DNA of 7,800 nucleotides, taken from IMG/VR virus record IMGVR_UViG_2671180405_000013, one strand, 5' to 3'. The notes beneath the pieces were generated by a model. That model searched no databases, was not told the origin of the DNA, and saw only the letters and a list, made by a program, of their open reading frames with translations. Position 1 is the stretch's first letter; every line of letters starts with the position of its first letter. The position numbers and the translations under genes are program-made. This DNA is from a virus (lineage: Duplodnaviria; Heunggongvirae; Uroviricota; Caudoviricetes). Below, one piece after another: positions 1-7,800 of the stretch.

Positions 1-9
1 GTTTCTACA

Positions 10-32
10 ACCCGCCGCCGAGCGGGTTTTTT
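10..32 (+). terminator. Intrinsic terminator, tR'-like (copy 1)
   Basis: GC stem acccgc/gcgggt around loop cgccga, then TTTTTT. Window positions 1-33 match 2225-2257, which lies directly downstream of a PR'-like promoter. Confidence 0.55.
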
Positions 33-152
33 ATGACTGAAATCGCGTCAGTACAGTAAACGCGCTGGTGGCGGTGAATACCTGTCTTTCAGCTTGCTGG
101 CTTTTTCGACAAGAGTTATTGGTGTGTCACGTTAACCGGAAAAGGAAAAGAC

Positions 153-350
153 ATGCTAAAACAGCAGGATATGACAGAAACCGCCAGAGTGGTGTTTAAT
201 GAATTAAGCGTTACCGAACCGGCGACAGTCGGGGAGATAGCGCAGAATACTTACCTTTCACGCGAACGCTGCCAGTTAATACTGACCCAGCTGGTTATGG
301 CGGGTCTGGCAGACTATCAGTTCGGTTGTTACAGACGCCTTCCGCAGTGA
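153..350 (+). CDS. Small hypothetical protein, 65 aa, possible winged-helix DNA-binding fold
   Basis: ATG at 153 preceded by AAGGAAAAG Shine-Dalgarno-like sequence. The segment TVGEIAQNTYLSRERCQLILTQLVMAGLADY resembles small wHTH regulators; that is inference from the translation only. Confidence 0.5.
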   Translation: MLKQQDMTETARVVFNELSVTEPATVGEIAQNTYLSRERCQLILTQLVMAGLADYQFGCYRRLPQ

Positions 351-360
351 AGGCTTTTTT
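337..360 (+). terminator. Intrinsic terminator overlapping the stop codon of the 153-350 ORF
   Basis: Stem gccttc (337-342) / gaaggc (349-354), 6-nt loop, then TTTTTT at 355-360. Confidence 0.45.
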
Positions 361-377
361 ATTTGTGGTAAATGGGC

Positions 378-408
378 GGCTGGTGGGTGTTAGGGGCACC
401 CACCAGCC
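378..408. promoter_or_regulatory. Perfect 12-bp inverted repeat (hairpin) in the methyltransferase leader
   Basis: ggctggtgggtg (378-389) pairs perfectly with cacccaccagcc (397-408) around a 7-nt loop; no T-tract follows. A second 7-bp hairpin lies at 450-468. Confidence 0.4.
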
Positions 409-500
409 ATCTGCTCATGCGTTGGGTTCACAAGCAAACCTCAGGCCCACTGCTTTGCGCAAAAGCAGAATGAGCCTATCAGAGACAGGCTTAATGATCC

Positions 501-1559
501 ATGCTTAATGCTGTAAAAATATCCAGTTGTGAGTTAATCAACGCCGACTGCCTGGAATTTATCCGGTCGTTACCCGAAAATTCTGTTGACCTGATAGTCA
601 CGGACCCGCCGTACTTTAAAGTGAAGCCTGAGGGCTGGGATAACCAGTGGAAGGGCGACGATGATTACCTGAAGTGGCTGGACCAGTGTCTGGCGCAGTT
701 CTGGCGGGTGCTGAAACCTGCCGGAAGTCTTTACCTGTTCTGTGGTCATCGCCTGGCATCTGATATCGAAATCATGATGCGTGAACGCTTCAGTGTGCTG
801 AACCATATTATCTGGGCGAAGCCGTCCGGACGCTGGAACGGATGCAACAAGGAAAGCCTGCGGGCGTATTTCCCCGCCACAGAGCGCATTCTGTTCGCGG
901 AACATTATCAGGGGCCGTATCGTCCGAAAGATGCCGGGTATGCGGCGAAGGGCAGTGCACTGAAACAGCATGTGATGGCCCCGCTGATTTCTTACTTTCG
1001 TGATGCGCGAGCTGCCCTGGGGATAACGGCAAAACAGATTGCAGATGCCACAGGAAAGAAAAACATGGTGTCGCACTGGTTCAGTGCCGGTCAGTGGCAG
1101 TTGCCGAATGAAAGCGATTATCTGAAATTACAGGCGCTGTTTGCCCGGGTGGCAGAAGAGAAGCATCGGCGTGGTGAACTGGAAAAGCTCCACCACCAGC
1201 TGGTGGATACGTATACCTCACTGAACCGGCAGTATGCGGAGCTGCTGAGTGAATATAAACATCTGCGGCGGTATTTTGGCGTGACGGTGCAGGTGCCGTA
1301 TACCGATGTGTGGACGCATAAACCGGTGCAGTTCTATCCCGGGAAACATCCGTGCGAAAAACCGGCAGAAATGCTGCAGCAGATAATCAGCGCTAGCAGT
1401 CGTCCGGGTGACCTGATTGCAGATTTTTTCATGGGGTTGGGTTCGACAGTGAAAGCGGCACTGGCGCTCGGGCGTCGTGCAATTGGCGTTGAGCTGGAGA
1501 CTGAACGTTTTGAGCAGACGGTTCGGGAAGTACAGGATTTAGTCAGCCAGAACGGATGA
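501..1559 (+). CDS. DNA methyltransferase, beta-class amino-MTase (N6-adenine or N4-cytosine), orphan
   Basis: 352-aa ORF with motif IV DPPY near the N-terminus (LIVTDPPYF) and motif I FxGxG near the C-terminus (DFFMGLGST), the beta-class order. No restriction endonuclease gene is adjacent in the window. Confidence 0.85.
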   Translation: MLNAVKISSCELINADCLEFIRSLPENSVDLIVTDPPYFKVKPEGWDNQWKGDDDYLKWLDQCLAQFWRVLKPAGSLYLFCGHRLASDIEIMMRERFSVLNHIIWAKPSGRWNGCNKESLRAYFPATERILFAEHYQGPYRPKDAGYAAKGSALKQHVMAPLISYFRDARAALGITAKQIADATGKKNMVSHWFSAGQWQLPNESDYLKLQALFARVAEEKHRRGELEKLHHQLVDTYTSLNRQYAELLSEYKHLRRYFGVTVQVPYTDVWTHKPVQFYPGKHPCEKPAEMLQQIISASSRPGDLIADFFMGLGSTVKAALALGRRAIGVELETERFEQTVREVQDLVSQNG

Positions 1560-1599
1560 TATTGAAGAATTAATTACGCGTCGTTATTATGCGGCTCCC

Positions 1600-1675
1600 G
1601 GCCCTTTAGCTCAGTGGTGAGAGCGAGCGACTCATAATCGCCAGGTCGCTGGTTCAAATCCAGCAAGGGCCACCA
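1600..1675 (+). tRNA. ileZ: tRNA with anticodon CAU (Ile2/Met type), ileZ-like
   Basis: Hand-folded cloverleaf: acceptor ggccctt/aagggcc, U8, D stem gctc/gagc, anticodon loop ctCATaa, T-loop ttcaaat, discriminator A, encoded CCA. Confidence 0.85.
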
Positions 1676-1682
1676 TCACATA

Positions 1683-1759
1683 CCGCCATTAGCTCATCAG
1701 GAAAGAGCGCCAGCCTTCGAAGCTGGCTGCGCGGGGTTCAAGTCCCCGATGGCGGTCCA
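1683..1759 (+). tRNA. argN: tRNA-Arg, anticodon UCG, argN-like
   Basis: Acceptor ccgccat/atggcgg, D stem gctc/gagc, anticodon stem ccagc/gctgg with loop ctTCGaa, T stem cgggg/ccccg with loop ttcaagt, encoded CCA. Confidence 0.8.
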
Positions 1760-1772
1760 TTATCTGCATCAT

Positions 1773-1849
1773 GCGTTGTTAGCTCAGCCGGACAGAGCAA
1801 TTGCCTTCTAAGCAATCGGTCACTGGTTCGAATCCAGTACAACGCGCCA
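1773..1849 (+). tRNA. argO: tRNA-Arg, anticodon UCU, argO-like
   Basis: Acceptor gcgttgt/acaacgc, anticodon stem attgc/gcaat with loop ctTCTaa, T-loop ttcgaat, encoded CCA. Confidence 0.85.
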
Positions 1850-1863
1850 CACTTATTTTCCCT

Positions 1864-1889
1864 GGCTCGCTTTTGCGGGCCTTTTTTTT
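1864..1889 (+). terminator. Intrinsic terminator downstream of the tRNA cluster
   Basis: Stem ggctcgc/gcgggcc (one U-G pair), loop tttt, followed by 8 T. Confidence 0.6.
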
Positions 1890-1892
1890 AAA

Positions 1893-2152
1893 TGTCTCAC
1901 AATTCAGACGGTTGACAGTTGTCTGTTTTGCGGGGAGTTTGTTAAAAGAAACTGGCATGGTGAATCCCCCTGTGCGGAGGGGCAATCAGCGAGTAGGTAT
2001 ATGGGATAATCGCGGATTCAGGTGCTGGTACTGAATTCACCGGGAGGCACCCGGCATCATGCAATGGCACATAGCGCCACTCTCCAGCCCTCTCCGGAGG
2101 GGCTTTTCTGTGCCGGATACATCACAGTTTCTGGAACCTTAGGTACTACAGT
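1893..2152 (+). repeat. Repeat family X, copy A (terminator-capped structured element; candidate sRNA unit)
   Basis: Positions 1917-2152 are identical to 4215-4450. Contains the TCACAATTCAG motif, a TTGACA box, closing helix catggtg (1956-1962) / catcatg (2055-2061), internal hairpins, and a terminator hairpin at 2087-2108 followed by TTTTCT. Confidence 0.7.
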
Positions 2153-2158
2153 NCTAGG

Positions 2159-2186
2159 TTGATTTTTCCGGAATCTGTGGTAAATT
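2159..2186 (+). promoter_or_regulatory. PR'-like late promoter (sigma70, extended -10)
   Basis: -35 TTGATT (2159-2164), 16-bp spacer, TGg + TAAATT (2178-2186), the same -10 hexamer as phage lambda PR'. A -10-like TAACTAT lies in the initial transcribed region and terminator copy 2 sits about 45 nt downstream, matching the lambda PR' to tR' short-transcript layout. Confidence 0.5.
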
Positions 2187-2234
2187 CGTCATAACTATGG
2201 GCGTTTTATGCCTGACGTTAGAAGAGTTTCTACA

Positions 2235-2257
2235 ACCCGCCGCCGAGCGGGTTTTTT
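2235..2257 (+). terminator. Intrinsic terminator, tR'-like (copy 2)
   Basis: Same hairpin and T-tract as at 10-32. Confidence 0.55.
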
Positions 2258-2296
2258 ATTGCGGAATTAATTACGGACCGTTATTATTCTGCTCCC

Positions 2297-2372
2297 GGCC
2301 CTTTAGCTCAGTGGTGAGAGCGAGCGACTCATAATCGCCAGGTCGCTGGTTCAAATCCAGCAAGGGCCACCA
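2297..2372 (+). tRNA. ileZ: tRNA with anticodon CAU (Ile2/Met type), second copy
   Basis: Same sequence as 1600-1675 with the same cloverleaf and encoded CCA. Confidence 0.85.
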
Positions 2373-2379
2373 TCACAAA

Positions 2380-2459
2380 CCGCCATTAGCTTATCAGGAA
2401 GAGCAGACGACATGATAACAGGGTTGTTGGTGCGGGGGCGGGTCCCCGATGGCGGTCCA
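2380..2459 (+). pseudogene. Degenerate tRNA (argN remnant)
   Basis: Acceptor stem ccgccat/atggcgg and the D-arm are retained, but the anticodon arm and T-arm are replaced by sequence that does not form a cloverleaf and has no T-loop. Confidence 0.5.
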
Positions 2460-2472
2460 TTATCGGTATTCA

Positions 2473-2549
2473 GCGTTGTTAGCTCAGCCGGACAGAGCAA
2501 TTGCCTTCTAAGCAATCGGTCACTGGTTCGAATCCAGTACAGCGCGCCA
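2473..2549 (+). tRNA. argO: tRNA-Arg, anticodon UCU, second copy
   Basis: Matches 1773-1849 except one acceptor-stem change (a to g at 2542) that leaves a U-G pair; anticodon loop ctTCTaa. Confidence 0.85.
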
Positions 2550-2659
2550 TATTCATTCTTCCAGATTCCTTCCGGCAGAGCCTTATACTGAAATATACCT
2601 GGCTCAGGATATTGTTGAAAATATTTTATGTTTGTCAAAAATAAAAGTTCTGTTAAGTA

Positions 2660-3013
2660 TTGATTGAGTGTTTGTTATACGGTCTAATGGTTTTTTCAGC
2701 ATTAAATATTTATCATTCATATGGTGTGGGTAGAGTGAATATTGATGAGGCGTCGGGGTGTTTCATCCTTAGGCAGCGTATTGATATAGTCAATGCAGCA
2801 CGAGCAAAGGCCTTCAGCCGTTTGACAGTTTTGTTCTGTACTCCTGATCGTCTTTCGGGAAGAGACGTTATTATTCTGAATAGTGATGCTATACAGAGGG
2901 TTTGCGATGAGTTCATGGTTGCTAATTCAGAATTATTTGCTCTTGTTCAGGAGTACAACAGAATAGCCAGGACCTGTGGTATGGATGAACTTCGGATTAC
3001 TCATCTGGGGTAG
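2660..3013 (+). CDS. Hypothetical protein, start uncertain (TTG 2660, ATG 2687 or GTG 2735)
   Basis: 354-nt ORF downstream of the second tRNA cluster. No convincing Shine-Dalgarno before any candidate start and no family recognised from the translation. Confidence 0.35.
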   Translation: MIECLLYGLMVFSALNIYHSYGVGRVNIDEASGCFILRQRIDIVNAARAKAFSRLTVLFCTPDRLSGRDVIILNSDAIQRVCDEFMVANSELFALVQEYNRIARTCGMDELRITHLG

Positions 3014-3204
3014 ATACATATCTGGATTATCACCTGTTACGGTAAAAAGTGATTGCTTACTGTTTTTGTGAATGGCATTGCAGCAGCCGGATAATGTCAG
3101 TGCTGGCTGACGGTGTGCTGGTGGCGGGTGTGGTGGTTGTTGCTTTCCCGTTGCTGAAAAAGAAAACGCCAGACTGTTAGCCGGGTATCAGTTAGCGGGA
3201 GAAA

Positions 3205-3428
3205 TTTTTAAATACTTCACAATTCAGGCGGTTGACTGTTGTCTGGTTTGCGGGGAGTTTGTTAAAAGAAACTGGCATGGTGAATCCCCCTGTGCGGAGG
3301 GGCAATCAGCGAGTAGGTATATGGGATAATCGCGGATTCAGGTGCTGGTACTGAATTCACCGGGAGGCACCCGGCACCATGCAATGGCACATAGCGCCAC
3401 TCTCCAGCCCCTCTCCGGAGGGGCTGTT
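3205..3428 (+). repeat. Repeat family X, copy B
   Basis: Same element as copy A with point differences: TTGACT box, closing helix caccatg (perfect pairing), terminator stem gcccctc/gaggggc 7 bp with loop tccg. Confidence 0.7.
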
Positions 3429-3457
3429 TATATTGATTTTGTCAGATGTGAGTAAAC

Positions 3458-3491
3458 TCCTTATGGACTTTGTTGTTTTAGTCCATAAGGA
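3458..3491. repeat. Perfect 11-bp inverted repeat at the left edge of the AT-rich island
   Basis: tccttatggac (3458-3468), 12-nt loop, gtccataagga (3481-3491). It overlaps the last codons of the minus-strand ORF and has no T-tract on either side. Confidence 0.6.
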
Positions 3492-3796
3492 CATATTTGC
3501 AGAGTGCAACGGTTATTAAAGCATTCATTCAATACGTTATCTGTATTTGTAGGGCATTCCTGGCTATTTTTGATTGAATTCCAGAATGTTTTATTGAATG
3601 GTACTACGTTGTAAATGGTTACAGGTAGCACTTTGTTATTGAGCATGATGCCTGTGTGAGTCAGTGTAAATATACTTTCAGGAGGTAAGAAAGCATCCGA
3701 TTGATACCAGATTATTAATTTTATTTTACTCCATATGACTGAAAAAGATATTCCGCATGATGGCTGGATAACTGTATCAATCACAATCCACTTCAT
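3461..3796 (-). CDS. Hypothetical Cys/Trp/Asn-rich protein, 111 aa, island cargo
   Basis: ATG at 3796-3794 preceded by AAGGA with a 6-nt spacer. A 111-codon open frame in very AT-rich DNA is unlikely by chance. Candidate promoter on the minus strand: -10 TATACT (plus 3837-3842), -35 TTTACA (plus 3858-3863), 15-bp spacer. Confidence 0.5.
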
Positions 3797-4056
3797 TTAG
3801 TTTCCTTGTTTATGCCTTGCTGGTGATGTTCTGAAAAGTATAAATGATATTTTTGAATGTAAACCATAGAGCAGAATTATTTTTCTGATGTTGTTTATTG
3901 TTTATTTAAATGCAGGGTGGTTTATATCTCGTCTTGTAGTTTATCCATGCATATCTGCTTGATAATCAGGTTTTTATTTAAGGTATGGTTTTGTGTTTTT
4001 TCTGTATTACATGTCAGGTATTTTAAAGAATTATTTTTCAGATGGTGGAAAGAACC

Positions 4057-4083
4057 ATGGCATTTAAACACTATGATGTTGTC
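4057..4083 (+). CDS. 5' fragment of a second nanS-p-like gene, truncated by the N gap
   Basis: atggcatttaaacactatgatgttgtc encodes MAFKHYDVV, identical in protein to the start of the 5123 ORF, with two synonymous differences and a different AT-rich upstream region. Confidence 0.5.
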
Positions 4084-4214
4084 NNNNNNNNNNNNNNNNN
4101 NNNNNNNNNNNNNNNNNNNNNNNNNNNNNNNNNNNNNNNNNNNNNNNNNNNNNNNNNNNNNNNNNNNNNNNNNNNNNNNNNNNNNNNNNNNNNNNNNNNN
4201 NNNNNNNNNNNNNN
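4084..4214. other. Assembly gap (131 N)
   Basis: Uninterrupted run of n. Confidence 1.
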
Positions 4215-4450
4215 AGTTGTCTGTTTTGCGGGGAGTTTGTTAAAAGAAACTGGCATGGTGAATCCCCCTGTGCGGAGGGGCAATCAGCGAGTAGGTATAT
4301 GGGATAATCGCGGATTCAGGTGCTGGTACTGAATTCACCGGGAGGCACCCGGCATCATGCAATGGCACATAGCGCCACTCTCCAGCCCTCTCCGGAGGGG
4401 CTTTTCTGTGCCGGATACATCACAGTTTCTGGAACCTTAGGTACTACAGT
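4215..4450 (+). repeat. Repeat family X, copy C (5' end lost in the gap)
   Basis: Identical to 1917-2152. Confidence 0.75.
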
Positions 4451-4596
4451 ATCAGTCAGGGTGCTATATTTTCAGATGTGATGAAAGCCTGTCAGCAGGC
4501 AGGGCGTATCGGAAATGACCCAGTAGAGAAAACGTTGACTCAGATACCGGTGCTGAGTTACCGGGAAACCGGCATCACATGACCGCTATCCTTCCA

Positions 4597-4623
4597 GGCC
4601 CATCCGCTCCGGTGGGCCTTTTT
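4597..4623 (+). terminator. Intrinsic terminator closing a partial X-like unit (4535-4623)
   Basis: Stem ggcccatc/gg(t)gggcc of 8 bp including one U-G pair, loop cgctcc, then TTTTT. The preceding ggtgctgagttaccgggaaaccggcatca aligns with the hairpin region of repeat X. Confidence 0.55.
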
Positions 4624-4660
4624 ACTGCAGAAAACAGGTTCCCCGTTAAATGCTATGTTG

Positions 4661-4895
4661 CTCACAATTCAGTAAGTTGACAGTTGCCTGTCAGACTGGG
4701 CATTTGTTAAAAAAATTTCGCATGGTGAATCCCCCTGAGCGGAGGGGCGACTGGTGACGGTATAATCTCTGATTATCAAAACGAGAATGACGCGGGTTTA
4801 GTGGCACCGGGCTGAACTCACCGGGAGGCACCCGGCACCATGTGCATGATGATACAGATACGCGGCTTTAGCCCCTCTCCGGAGGGGTTTTCTTG
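4661..4895 (+). repeat. Repeat family X, copy D (divergent), ending about 230 nt upstream of nanS-p
   Basis: Retains TCACAATTCAG, the TTGACA box, closing helix catggtg (4721-4727) / caccatg, hairpin ccgggaggcacccgg and terminator cccctc/gagggg + TTTTCTT (4871-4895); sequence between the helices has diverged. Confidence 0.65.
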
Positions 4896-4900
4896 TGGGC

Positions 4901-4929
4901 AAAAAAAGCCCGCGCTGGGAGACGCGGGC
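4901..4929 (-). terminator. Intrinsic terminator readable on the minus strand
   Basis: On the minus strand, stem gcccgcg/cgcgggc (7 bp) with loop tctcccag is followed by TTTTTTT (plus-strand A7 at 4901-4907). Confidence 0.4.
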
Positions 4930-5122
4930 GGCAAGGAATAAACAATAAAACGTGAAGTAATATTTCAGCTGGCGAATAATACCCCATAGTAATCACTCTG
5001 CGCAACTGCGCGGTCTTTTTCGAATTGCGGGCTGTCGTCTCTCTTCTGCCATTGTCCTGTAACTTCCGGACTTCAGCCCGCTCCTTATTTTACTCACAAT
5101 ATTATCCCGGCCGGGAGGATTC

Positions 5123-6976
5123 ATGGCATTTAAACACTATGACGTGGTCAGGGCGGCATCGCCGTCAGACCTTGCGAAACGACTGACACAAAAACTGAAG
5201 GAGGGCTGGCAGCCGTTTGGTAGTCCGGTGGCCATAACCCCTTATACCCTGATGCAGGCGATTGCAGCAGAAGGTGATGTGGTCGTCAGTGGTGCAACTG
5301 AGCCGGAGTGGTACTACGTCATCGTACTGGCCGGGCAATCCAATGCCATGGCTTACGGTGAAGGTCTTCCGCTTCCGGATTCATACGATGCGCCCCATCC
5401 GCGCATTAAGCAACTGGCCCGTCGTAACACAGTGACTCCCGGTGGTGAAGTATGCGTATTTAACGACATCATTCCTGCTGACCATTGTCTGCATGATGTT
5501 CAGGATATGAGTACGATTAACCATCCCCGGGCTGACCTGAGCAAAGGGCAGTACGGCTGTGTCGGACAGGGCTTACATATTGCCAAAAAACTGCTTCCGT
5601 ATATCCCTAATAATGCGGGGATCCTGCTGGTACCATGCTGTTGTGGTGGTTCGGCATTCACCCAGGGCACGGAGGGGACATTCAGCGAGTCCACGGGGGC
5701 CAGTCAGGATTCGGCTCGCTGGGGAGTGGGTAAGCCGTTATATCAGGATCTGCTTTTCCGCACGAAGGCAGCATTGCAGAAAAACCCGAAAAACGTTTTG
5801 CTGGCGATATGCTGGATGCAGGGGGAATTCGATATGACGAATGCCAGTTACGCCCAGCAGCCAGCAGCATTTCTTGCAATGGTACAGCAGTTCCGTGCTG
5901 ACCTTGCCGGGCTGGCGGCGCAGTGTCACGGTGGAAGTCCGGCATCAGTCCCCTGGATTTGTGGCGACACGACATACGCGTGGAAACAAGAACACGGTAC
6001 GCAATATGAAGTGGTATATGGTGCATATAAAGGTAAAGAATCCCAGCAGATTTATTTTGTTCCCTTTATGACCGATGGTAGCGGAGTTAATACACCGACA
6101 AACAACCCGTCAGAAGATCCTGATATTGCCGGGTCTGGTTATTACGGTTCGGCATCCCGAACGAACAAAAACTGGGTATCATCAAATCGCCCGACGCATT
6201 TCAGCTCATGGGCGCGTCGTGGCATTATTCCCGATCGTATGGCAACTGCTATTCTGAACGTAGCCGGTCGCACCTTAGCCTTCATTAGTGGTAAGGCACC
6301 GGAAATCAAACCCTCGCCCGGCGGCGACACGCCATCGGGGCCGTCTGAAGATGCATCCATACGCACAATCTCCCTGTTGCCGACAGCCGGAGACGCTGCT
6401 GCGCAGGGCTGGAGCATTAAGAATGGCGGAGTTCAGTTGTCAGATGGTGTATTTAAGATCACCAAGCAGAGCAATAAAGCCTGGTCCCTGACGCGCCCGG
6501 TGGATGACGCAGTCTCCCTGCTGACACGGGGTGGCAGACTGAGCTGTAAGTTTCGACTGTCAGGCGCACTGACCAACAACCAGTTCGGTCTGGGAATTTA
6601 TCTGTATACCGATGTAGCGTTACCTGACGTCGTGGCGATGACCGGGACTGGTAACCCGTTCCTGATGTCGTTCTTCACCCAGACCACAGACGGCAAACTG
6701 AATCTGATGCATCACAAGAAAGCAGGAAACACAAAGTTGGGCGAGTTCGGGAATTACAGTAACGACTGGCTGACGCTGGAGCTGGTGTTCACCGCCGGCA
6801 GTGCCACGGTTACTCCGAAACTGAATGGAGTGGCTGGCCCGGCATTCCAGGTCATAAAAGACAGTCTGACACTGGGGCTGAATGCGCTGACGCTGACGGA
6901 TATTACCAAAAATGCAGCGTATGGCGTTGAGATAGAAAGTCTGGTGCTGGAGATAAATGCACCGGCATCATCATAA
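5123..6976 (+). CDS. nanS: Prophage sialate O-acetylesterase, NanS-p type (N-terminal DUF1737-like segment plus SGNH/SASA esterase domain)
   Basis: 617-aa ORF with strong Shine-Dalgarno GGGAGGA 5 nt upstream of the ATG. N-terminus MAFKHYDVV and the GQSN esterase motif (VLAGQSNAMAYGEG) match the 9-O-acetyl-sialate esterases found downstream of stx in EHEC prophages. Confidence 0.8.
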   Translation: MAFKHYDVVRAASPSDLAKRLTQKLKEGWQPFGSPVAITPYTLMQAIAAEGDVVVSGATEPEWYYVIVLAGQSNAMAYGEGLPLPDSYDAPHPRIKQLARRNTVTPGGEVCVFNDIIPADHCLHDVQDMSTINHPRADLSKGQYGCVGQGLHIAKKLLPYIPNNAGILLVPCCCGGSAFTQGTEGTFSESTGASQDSARWGVGKPLYQDLLFRTKAALQKNPKNVLLAICWMQGEFDMTNASYAQQPAAFLAMVQQFRADLAGLAAQCHGGSPASVPWICGDTTYAWKQEHGTQYEVVYGAYKGKESQQIYFVPFMTDGSGVNTPTNNPSEDPDIAGSGYYGSASRTNKNWVSSNRPTHFSSWARRGIIPDRMATAILNVAGRTLAFISGKAPEIKPSPGGDTPSGPSEDASIRTISLLPTAGDAAAQGWSIKNGGVQLSDGVFKITKQSNKAWSLTRPVDDAVSLLTRGGRLSCKFRLSGALTNNQFGLGIYLYTDVALPDVVAMTGTGNPFLMSFFTQTTDGKLNLMHHKKAGNTKLGEFGNYSNDWLTLELVFTAGSATVTPKLNGVAGPAFQVIKDSLTLGLNALTLTDITKNAAYGVEIESLVLEINAPASS

Positions 6977-7061
6977 AAAGTGAGCCAGCCAAATGGAAGG
7001 TATCGTTAAACTCACCGGTAGTGTCAGTGGGTCGTCTGAGATGCCTGCATGAGTTATCAGA

Positions 7062-7091
7062 GCCATCAGTACTTAACTGGTGGCTTTTTTT
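7062..7091 (+). terminator. Intrinsic terminator between nanS-p and the holin
   Basis: Stem gccatcag/ctggtggc (8 bp, one U-G pair), loop tacttaa, followed by TTTTTTT. Confidence 0.6.
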
Positions 7092-7126
7092 ATTGTTGTC
7101 AGCTTCCGGATAACGGGAGACGGGGT

Positions 7127-7342
7127 ATGTACCAGATGGAAAAAATCACAACAGGTGTGTCATACACCACGTCAGCGGTGGGAACGGGCTACTGGTTCCT
7201 GCAGTTGCTGGACAGGGTTTCCCCGTCTCAGTGGGCGGCAATAGGCGTGCTGGGGAGTCTGCTGTTTGGGCTGCTGACATATCTGACTAACCTGTATTTC
7301 AAAATCAGAGAGGACCGTCGTAAGGCTGCACGGGGAGAGTAA
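7127..7342 (+). CDS. S: Class II holin, S21-type (pinholin), dual-start motif
   Basis: 71-aa product [26 protein letters not shown]...[20 protein letters not shown] closely matches the phage 21 S holin as remembered. Met1 (7127) and Met4 (7136) form the antiholin/holin dual start; GGGAGACGGGG precedes it. The track ORF from 7049 is overextended and runs through the terminator at 7062-7091. Confidence 0.85.
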
Positions 7343-7346
7343 TTCA

Positions 7347-7661
7347 ATGACTCAAAACTATGAACTGATTGTGAAAGGGATCCGCAATTTTGAGAATAAA
7401 GTTACGGTAACTTTAGCGTTACGGGACAAAAAACGCTTTGACGGTGAAATTTTTGACCTGGACATCTCGCTGGACCGTGTTGAAGGTGCCGCGCTGGAGT
7501 TTTATGAGGCAGCAGCCAGAAGGAGCATCAGACAGGTCTTCTTGGATGTTGCTGCCGGGTTATGTGAAGGGGACGAGCTGTTGCCAGAAACGCGCCCCTG
7601 TTCAGAGGCGCGGTATACCATAAAAATTAACAGTTCTGATAACTCGATTACGGGTTGTTAG
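7347..7661 (+). CDS. Hypothetical acidic protein, 104 aa, between holin and endolysin
   Basis: ATG at 7347 lies 4 nt after the holin stop with GGGGAGAG upstream, suggesting translational coupling. No family recognised. Confidence 0.55.
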   Translation: MTQNYELIVKGIRNFENKVTVTLALRDKKRFDGEIFDLDISLDRVEGAALEFYEAAARRSIRQVFLDVAAGLCEGDELLPETRPCSEARYTIKINSSDNSITGC

Positions 7662-7716
7662 CTTTTTGCAGTTGGCTTTCCAGTATCTTTCATTGGTAGC
7701 ATCCTGATAAATATCC

Positions 7717-7800
7717 ATGAGCGCAAAAATCAAATACGGCCTGTCAGCTGCTGTTCTGGCGCTGATTGCAAAATGGCATCTGAATCGATCGCAGTTTGGC
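7717..7800 (+). CDS. Probable endolysin, N-terminal fragment (SAR-type signal-anchor), partial at window end
   Basis: MSAKIKYGLSAAVLALIA resembles the Gly/Ala-rich signal-anchor start of SAR endolysins in lambdoid prophages, and the position after the holin fits. There is no clear Shine-Dalgarno and only 28 codons are visible. Confidence 0.4.
   Translation, partial: MSAKIKYGLSAAVLALIAKWHLNRSQFG

Follow-up and report, generated by a model that had tools for sequence, protein, structure and literature searches.

Shiga toxin (Stx)-converting phages carry stxA and stxB between the Q gene, with its late promoter PR′, and the lysis genes. In the Stx2a phages Stx2a_WGPS2 (NC_049941) and Stx2_EH2246 (LC567837) this late region, of the methyltransferase type, runs from Q through a gene for a 65-amino-acid (aa) protein, a methyltransferase gene, the transfer RNA (tRNA) genes, a terminator, the cargo slot, an STnc100 small RNA (sRNA) gene, iraM on the minus strand, nanS-p and the holin gene S to the endolysin gene, and stx2A and stx2B lie directly after the tRNA gene argO. 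The STnc100/PasD sRNAs, which adjoin prophage sialic-acid esterase genes, are Hfq-associated, and the function of the family is not yet established (bioRxiv 10.64898/2026.05.13.724894); the same work describes the sRNA-esterase-holin-lysozyme arrangement with and without stx and discusses a repeated loss of stx. The gene nanS-p has also been documented in non-Stx prophages (PMC10462455). The DNA considered here, a stretch of 7,800 nucleotides (nt) from the IMG/VR virus record IMGVR_UViG_2671180405_000013 (“the window”), shows the order methyltransferase, ileZ-argN-argO, cargo, nanS-p and S holin, and it is without the stx genes that the Stx2a phages have after argO. As judged from comparison with related assemblies, the window is very probably a short-read scaffold that combines the late-region “moron” zones of two ordinary, stx-free Escherichia coli lambdoid prophages.

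A first-pass annotation of the window had recognized this gene order, likened it to the layout of Stx phages, and taken the interval 1850–5122 as a single slot filled with cargo other than stx. The order itself is right, the methyltransferase being identified by Pfam (PF01555), the tRNAs by ARAGORN, and nanS-p and the holin again by Pfam; it is that of NC_049941 and LC567837, and the interval corresponds exactly to what separates argO from nanS-p. It is not one contiguous slot, however, being made up of parts of three contigs that stem from two different prophage late regions. Contig A1 runs up to 2152 and is joined through a single n (2153) to contig B (2154–4083), which is followed by a scaffold gap of 131 N (4084–4214) and by contig A2 (from 4215). 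Over 236 nt, the 3′ end of A1 (1917–2152) is 100% identical to the 5′ end of A2 (4215–4450), and as this identity stops exactly at the n on one side and starts exactly after the N-run on the other, it bears the signature of a contig suffix that equals a contig prefix. The scaffolder would have placed contig B between A1 and A2, which would in fact overlap by 236 nt, and the locus to which A1 and A2 belong (locus A) would consist of 1–2152 joined directly to 4451–7800.

When 2153–4450 is left out, the window gives one high-scoring segment pair of 5,300 base pairs (bp), with 98.6% identity, to the chromosome of E. coli O121 201805972, and the distance from argO to nanS-p in the merged locus A becomes 975 bp, the same distance being 975–977 bp in the complete genomes L004 and L005 (L numbers denote the related sequences used for comparison). 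Contig B is matched from 2156 to 4083 in a single piece of 1.93 kb, with 99.5% identity, by E. coli 042, where the B-type segment sits between the Q gene and a truncated nanS-p. Both types are present in strain 042, about 840 kb apart. Alignments to L002, L003 and L006 place the start of contig B immediately behind the Q stop codon, and its last 27 nt belong to nanS-p, so that both of its ends lie where short-read assembly meets multi-copy prophage sequence.

The junctions were then followed in other sequences. The 34-mer ending at 2152 continues into the A2 sequence, (A/G)TCAGTCAGG, in all 37 other sequences in which it was found, namely 4 complete genomes and 33 metagenome contigs, each of which holds a single copy of it. 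A 121-nt query across the n at 2153, by comparison, recovered the junction in none of 5,426 complete E. coli genomes, although one half of it is present in 1,428 of them. Window positions 2093–2152 are matched with 100% identity in the E. coli type strain ATCC 11775 (NZ_CP033092.2, 2714333–2714392); an exact scan of the genome contig collection for the 34-mer gave no match, either since another E. coli representative stands in that collection or since the stretch is masked there. Two further sequences were found by a look-up of contigs that encode the identical methyltransferase. In the first, an N-free contig (L049, GCA_013895505.1), bases 148–2437 are an exact substring of window 1–2152 plus 4451–4588, so that A1 runs directly into A2 and the 236 nt, with the sRNA gene that they contain, are present once. 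The second (L045, CXBH01000176.1, GCA_001253915.1) is a sister scaffold with the same three blocks at 100% identity, in which the single-N joins fall elsewhere: one after the equivalent of window position 2075 and the other 92 nt into nanS-p (L045 positions 2567 and 4493). Its A2 block opens with the T-run of the argO terminator and the upstream box of the sRNA gene, so that A2 is preceded by A1-type sequence. Its contig B ends at GAGGGCTGGCAGCC, beyond which its nanS-p no longer differs from the other copy.

The alternative that the scaffold order is correct would make the window a composite prophage, with segment B nested in a perfect direct repeat of 236 bp and with two tRNA sets, four sRNA genes and one slot of 3.3 kb. 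Lambdoid prophages recombine often and the modules in question are shuffled among genomes, and the order A1-B-A2 is found in both the window and the sister scaffold. Yet both junctions would be illegitimate, one fusing the 3′ flank of an sRNA gene to the base after the Q stop codon and the other nanS-p codon ~31 to the T-run of the argO terminator, and both coincide exactly with assembly gaps that are placed differently in the two scaffolds. The absence of the junction from the complete genomes, the A2 continuation in every other sequence, and an N-free, 100%-identical contig that runs from A1 straight into A2 also argue against it, and a nested prophage is accordingly regarded as very improbable.

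Several points nevertheless weigh against the interpretation as two prophages combined by scaffolding and against the picture of its expression given below. The mis-join is deduced from other assemblies, not from read evidence. The order A1-B-A2 is identical in at least two scaffolds, apparently from one sequencing project, which could mean that read pairs support it; the shared order would also be expected because the same repeats in the same pipeline yield the same artefact. The expression of the parts, i.e., read-through from PR′ and the promoters of the sRNA and iraM genes, is put forward by analogy, and a simple promoter scan picked up neither the PR′-like hexamers nor a good −10 element for STnc100.

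Joins of this kind recur in the related draft assemblies (CXBH, CXBK, CXBP), in which prophage contigs are linked via a single N or short N runs at repeat ends, and L044 has six N runs and duplicated RusA and Q genes. Windows cut from such scaffolds can display false gene orders, and N characters at the ends of perfect repeats should be taken as contig joins. The apparently oversized slot of the window is such a product of a scaffolding error.

The first-pass annotation had also stated that no frame resembles a Stx A or B subunit, and this was borne out: tblastn with Stx2A and Stx2B at default settings found no StxA match and only noise for StxB in the window, blastn with the stx2AB cassette gave no match, and the positive control for tblastn scored 657 and 185 bits for Stx2A and Stx2B, respectively. 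A lenient tblastn match of Stx2A to 4891–4727 (27 bits, E = 0.004) was discarded; it contains an in-frame stop and 10 gap positions, runs antisense to an sRNA gene and is gone at default settings. For the readable sequence, then, it holds that a Stx-like late region is without stx, the genes stxA and stxB being absent between Q/PR′ and the lysis genes. Within the gap at 4084–4214, where the first-pass annotation had allowed for hidden stx sequence, the content is deduced from the sister scaffold, which fills this place with nanS-p codons (about 65 nt), one N and a stretch of about 34 nt that repeats window 1883–1916; on this reading no stx is hidden there. A scaffold gap is only an estimate of size, and in Stx phages stxB lies directly upstream of the STnc100 gene that here follows the gap, so that a toxin cassette might be imagined in it. 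The cassette measures 1,335 nt, against 131 nt for the gap, the sister scaffold continues past its nanS-p codons and one N with the T-run of the argO terminator and the box upstream of the sRNA gene, the N-free contig shows A2 preceded by A1, and stx lies within 900 nt upstream in none of the 34 natural sequences with this sRNA flank. The chance that the gap conceals stx is thus held to be negligible.

In locus A itself the stx position can be read base by base. Homology to the Stx2a phages extends for 38 nt beyond argO, slightly past the terminator (1864–1881), and restarts at the sRNA upstream box TCACAATTCAG, and in the junction alignment with L040 the 1,335-bp stx2AB cassette of the phage faces about 5 nt in the window; homology that stops and restarts at these edges means that the cassette is cleanly absent. 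The first-pass annotation had offered two explanations, a stx-negative relative of Stx phages or a former Stx phage in which repeat-X elements, an unknown open reading frame (ORF) and an AT-rich island have taken the place of the cargo. The first is supported by 403 phage records that match the window, most of them Stx-converting, with 90–95% identity over the methyltransferase/tRNA, sRNA, nanS-p and holin modules. The second is not supported, as the 3.3 kb of replacement cargo was made by the scaffolding of a 1.9-kb contig from another prophage between two overlapping contigs. A different version, in which locus A descends from a Stx phage by a precise deletion of stxAB instead of from ancestors without these genes, draws on the flanks, which are homologous to Stx2a phages on either side of exactly 1,335 absent bp, on phage Nil3 of an O157:H7 strain, which shares the empty arrangement, and on the repeated loss of stx raised for esterase/sRNA/holin modules without it (bioRxiv 10.64898/2026.05.13.724894).

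Against this loss, no stx remnant, scar or flanking direct repeat was found at the locus A position. The nearest relatives, at 98.6–99% identity, are stx-free at this locus, whereas Stx phages reach ~94% over the methyltransferase and tRNAs and 75–91% over nanS-p, and the empty or non-stx arrangement is widespread: in 1,279 complete-genome records the end of the methyltransferase gene, the tRNAs and the sRNA gene lie in one place. These records were collected with a joining rule of at most ~0.9 kb between pieces, which excludes the 1.34-kb stx cassette and includes the type with the 117-aa ORF and DUF3927 (see below). Among 34 informative sequences, of which 30 are metagenome contigs and 4 are complete genomes, the 900 nt upstream of the A-type sRNA gene hold argO in 29, DUF3927 in 5 and stx in none. 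The direction, gain or loss, is not readable from one locus, and a precise deletion is considered unlikely.

The comparison of loci resolves two places at which cargo varies. The first extends from the argO terminator to the upstream box of STnc100; it is vacant in locus A and is occupied by the 117-aa ORF and DUF3927 in locus B and by stxAB in Stx phages. The second, from STnc100 to nanS-p, holds iraM or further STnc100 units. The modules recombine freely across the loci examined, with the methyltransferase present or absent and argN intact or degenerate. A bolder proposal would make the first place a dedicated cassette-exchange site up to the TCACAATTCAG box, with sharp, reused edges and a specific mechanism other than ordinary homologous recombination within the conserved flanks, and, separately, would take the scaffold order as real, with a nested two-phage late region; little credence is given to it. 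As a map of the alternative cargo on either side of STnc100 the comparison is a useful description and presents nothing new in kind.

The elements called repeat X in the first-pass annotation belong to the STnc100 (RF02076)/PasD sRNA family of Rfam, in which four units score 124–161 bits against a gathering score of 47 (161, 132.4, 123.6 and 123.6 bits) and a fifth, with 30 bits, remains below it. Each of the four is preceded by a conserved box and has an intrinsic terminator; like all features described here except where stated otherwise, they lie on the plus strand. Copy 1 with the 3′ end of A1 occupies 1896–2152 (123.6 bits, match 1926–2115) and has the upstream box TCACAATTCAG..TTGACA; copy 2, in locus B, lies at 3216–3435 (132.4 bits, match 3246–3435). 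“Copy 3”, the 5′ end of A2 at 4215–4450 (123.6 bits, match 4224–4413), is the second representation of 1917–2152, and the distinct units in the window therefore number three rather than four. It is followed by the degenerate unit at 4452–4625 (E = 0.0013), which has its own terminator at 4596–4619, and by copy 4 at 4661–4900 (161 bits, match 4691–4900), the variant nearest to the STnc100 between stx2B and nanS-p in Stx2a phages, with 87% identity to L040 5713–5948. The variant type was also tried as a clue to the sequence upstream of A2 and rejected as such, the core of copies 1 and 3 being 99% identical to the unit of the Stx1 phage 75/02. RefSeq shows a partial “hypothetical protein” pseudogene antisense to STnc100 (L001 8544–8669), the likely source of which is a set of 42-aa ORFs that recur on the minus strand (1942–2070, 3262–3390 and 4240–4368); these ORFs are probably not genes. 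Weak Rfam matches to Plastid-ycf2 (antisense to ileZ), Trp_leader (2154–2260), OmrA-B (4901–4989, minus strand) and P26 were set aside as chance or generic terminator likeness because they are below the gathering scores.

Locus A thus reads tR′, 65-aa ORF, methyltransferase, ileZ-argN-argO, terminator, empty stx position, STnc100, degenerate unit, STnc100, nanS-p, holin S, DUF1327 and endolysin. The intrinsic terminator at 9–35, found by the terminator scan, is by its position the late terminator tR′ after a Q gene just upstream of the window; its sequence recurs at 2234–2260, and in complete genomes it lies ~60–100 nt after the Q stop codon. The 65-aa ORF of unknown function at 153–350 (phrog_331, E = 1.4e-37) is conserved between Q and the methyltransferase gene, where L001, L005, L040 and L041 have it annotated as a “hypothetical protein”. 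The DNA N6/N4 methyltransferase gene follows at 501–1559 (PF01555, N6_N4_Mtase, 144 bits), and its counterpart is annotated as DNA methyltransferase in the relatives and in Stx2a phages. The first tRNA set (1600–1849; ARAGORN and Rfam tRNA, with the names as in NC_049941) is an intact cluster of all three genes, ileZ (anticodon CAT, 1600–1675), argN (TCG, 1683–1759) and argO (TCT, 1773–1849). After argO, a terminator hairpin with a T-run at 1864–1889 forms the 5′ edge of the stx position.

The gene nanS-p (5123–6976) encodes a prophage sialate O-acetylesterase of 617 aa in which DUF1737 (residues 3–50) and the C-terminal DUF6645 (467–577) flank the SASA domain (66–262), all three matched by Pfam; esterase activity is predicted from this architecture, which agrees with the description in PMC10462455, and the counterparts in relatives are annotated as SASA family carbohydrate esterase. 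Next come a class II (P21-type) holin gene S at 7127–7342 (PF04971, 112.5 bits), a gene for a DUF1327 protein between holin and endolysin at 7347–7661 (PF07041, 132.8 bits), and the 5′ part of the endolysin (lysozyme R) gene at 7717–7800, which runs off the window and is homologous to the lysozyme annotated at L001 11929. The spacer between nanS-p and the holin gene (6977–7100) is predicted to fold well (z = −2.6), with a strong terminator hairpin of 12 bp and a T-run at its end; no Rfam family matches it. PasA/PasC sit between esterase and holin (bioRxiv 10.64898/2026.05.13.724894).

Locus B (2154–4083) consists of the post-Q sequence with PR′ and tR′, ileZ, a dead argN, argO, the 117-aa ORF, DUF3927, STnc100, iraM on the minus strand and the start of nanS-p. 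Its first part, 2154–2260, would contain a PR′-like promoter and tR′ (2234–2260), according to the alignment with L002, L003 and L006 and the terminator scan. From position only, TTGATT and TAAATT, 16 nt apart, may be that promoter; specific −35/−10 assignments for PR′ or STnc100 drew no support from the promoter scan. The second tRNA set (2297–2549; ARAGORN and direct repeats D3 and D4) comprises ileZ (CAT, 2297–2372), a degenerate argN remnant (~2380–2460, from the direct repeats) and argO (TCT, 2473–2549), ARAGORN calling only two tRNAs here and five in the whole window. The argN of this set is called by neither ARAGORN nor Rfam, so that the intact trio is lacking, and in RefSeq the homologous places carry annotations for tRNA-Ile and tRNA-Arg alone. 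The remnant keeps the 5′ part with the acceptor and D-arm and the 3′ end, the anticodon arm and half of the T arm being replaced by unrelated sequence, and this degenerate form is found in hundreds of complete genomes (L001–L003, L006).

The 117-aa ORF of unknown function (2660–3013; phrog_2873, E = 3.8e-70) occupies the stx position of locus B; its real start is probably the ATG at 2687, which would give 108 aa. It probably represents a real small helical protein because of its membership in the phrog_2873 family and because its homologues, down to 56% identity, keep the invariant motif FSRLTVLFCTPDR. Its AlphaFold2 model has three helices at a predicted local distance difference test score of 70 and no match to a PDB fold at E <= 0.001; no Pfam or NCBIfam match was obtained, and the homology search returned only hypothetical proteins of E. 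coli and Shigella. RefSeq, with its Prokaryotic Genome Annotation Pipeline, leaves the ORF unannotated in the complete genomes examined. A 43-aa DUF3927/TciB-like small membrane protein is encoded at 3049–3180 (PF13064, 95.6 bits; phrog_1470).

The “AT-rich island” of the first-pass annotation contains iraM (3461–3796, minus strand), which matches NCBIfam NF007393 over practically its full length (residues 1–110 of 111) with 162 bits, above the curated cut-off of 121. IraM is annotated at the homologous places in L001, L006 and L041, by RefSeq and in the LC5678xx phage records. As a moron, the gene recurs among prophages immediately before nanS-p, and Stx2a phages have it there too (L040 5963–6303, L041 5975–6298). 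In the contig collection its product carries the precomputed Pfam label PF11183 (PmrD); our own Pfam scan gave none at E <= 0.01. Contig B ends with the first 9 codons of a second nanS-p (4057–4083; repeat D9 with 5113–5149), which continues as nanS-p in L001, L006 and L045.

How such a region might work can be sketched by analogy with lambdoid late operons. The window has the holin gene, the start of the endolysin gene and tR′-like terminators at 9–35 and 2234–2260, and the Q gene that such an operon would have upstream, outside the window, is at the homologous place in all relatives examined. Terminator-like hairpins are enriched in the window (22 against 5.4 expected in the terminator scan) and lie nearly all on the plus strand, which suits a late operon under antitermination by Q. 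From PR′, close behind the Q gene, transcription would stop at tR′ unless Q modifies the polymerase; upon induction, the Q-modified polymerase would pass the terminators after tR′, argO and each sRNA gene and reach nanS-p and the lysis genes. The tRNAs, the STnc100 sRNAs and iraM would have their own signals and might be expressed in the lysogen. The ileZ-argN-argO tRNAs would decode the rare codons AUA, CGA/CGG and AGA, and NanS-p would take O-acetyl groups off sialic acids. IraM, here prophage-borne and predicted from its sequence to be an anti-adaptor, would stabilize RpoS by blocking RssB.

The toxin-free layout of the window is ordinary and very common in E. coli, and the configuration is already known. 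The nearest relatives of loci A and B, at 98.6–99.5% identity, are stx-free at the locus and very common, at least 80% of contig B being held by 863 genomes. In E. coli this late region most often has the very layout that suggests a Stx phage whose cargo was replaced, and caution is called for: for typing pipelines, the synteny of methyltransferase, tRNAs and nanS-p does not signal a present or past Stx phage. This synteny, shared with the Stx2a phages at 94% identity over 1.9 kb, is not specific to Stx phages.

Set beside the described systems, the window differs from the Stx2a phages first in the absence of stx2A and stx2B after argO and then in degree, with 94% identity over 9–1887, 87% in the sRNA gene and 77% in iraM, and with a nanS-p that is 75–91% identical at the DNA level to their longer allele of 645 aa (annotated length). 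In phage Nil3 (AM051322, from an O157:H7 strain), argO is followed by the same sRNA gene at 96.5% identity, which is the empty arrangement of locus A. The prophage of O121 201805972 (NZ_CP119441) is collinear with locus A over 5.3 kb at 98.6% identity, and that of the enteroaggregative E. coli strain 042 (NC_017626) with locus B over 1.93 kb at 99.5%. From these stx-free relatives, together with the prophages of NMBU_W05E18 (NZ_CP042878) and WP4-S18-ESBL-09 (NZ_AP022098), the two loci show no substantive difference, and it is in the window only that the two arrangements are joined, via N.

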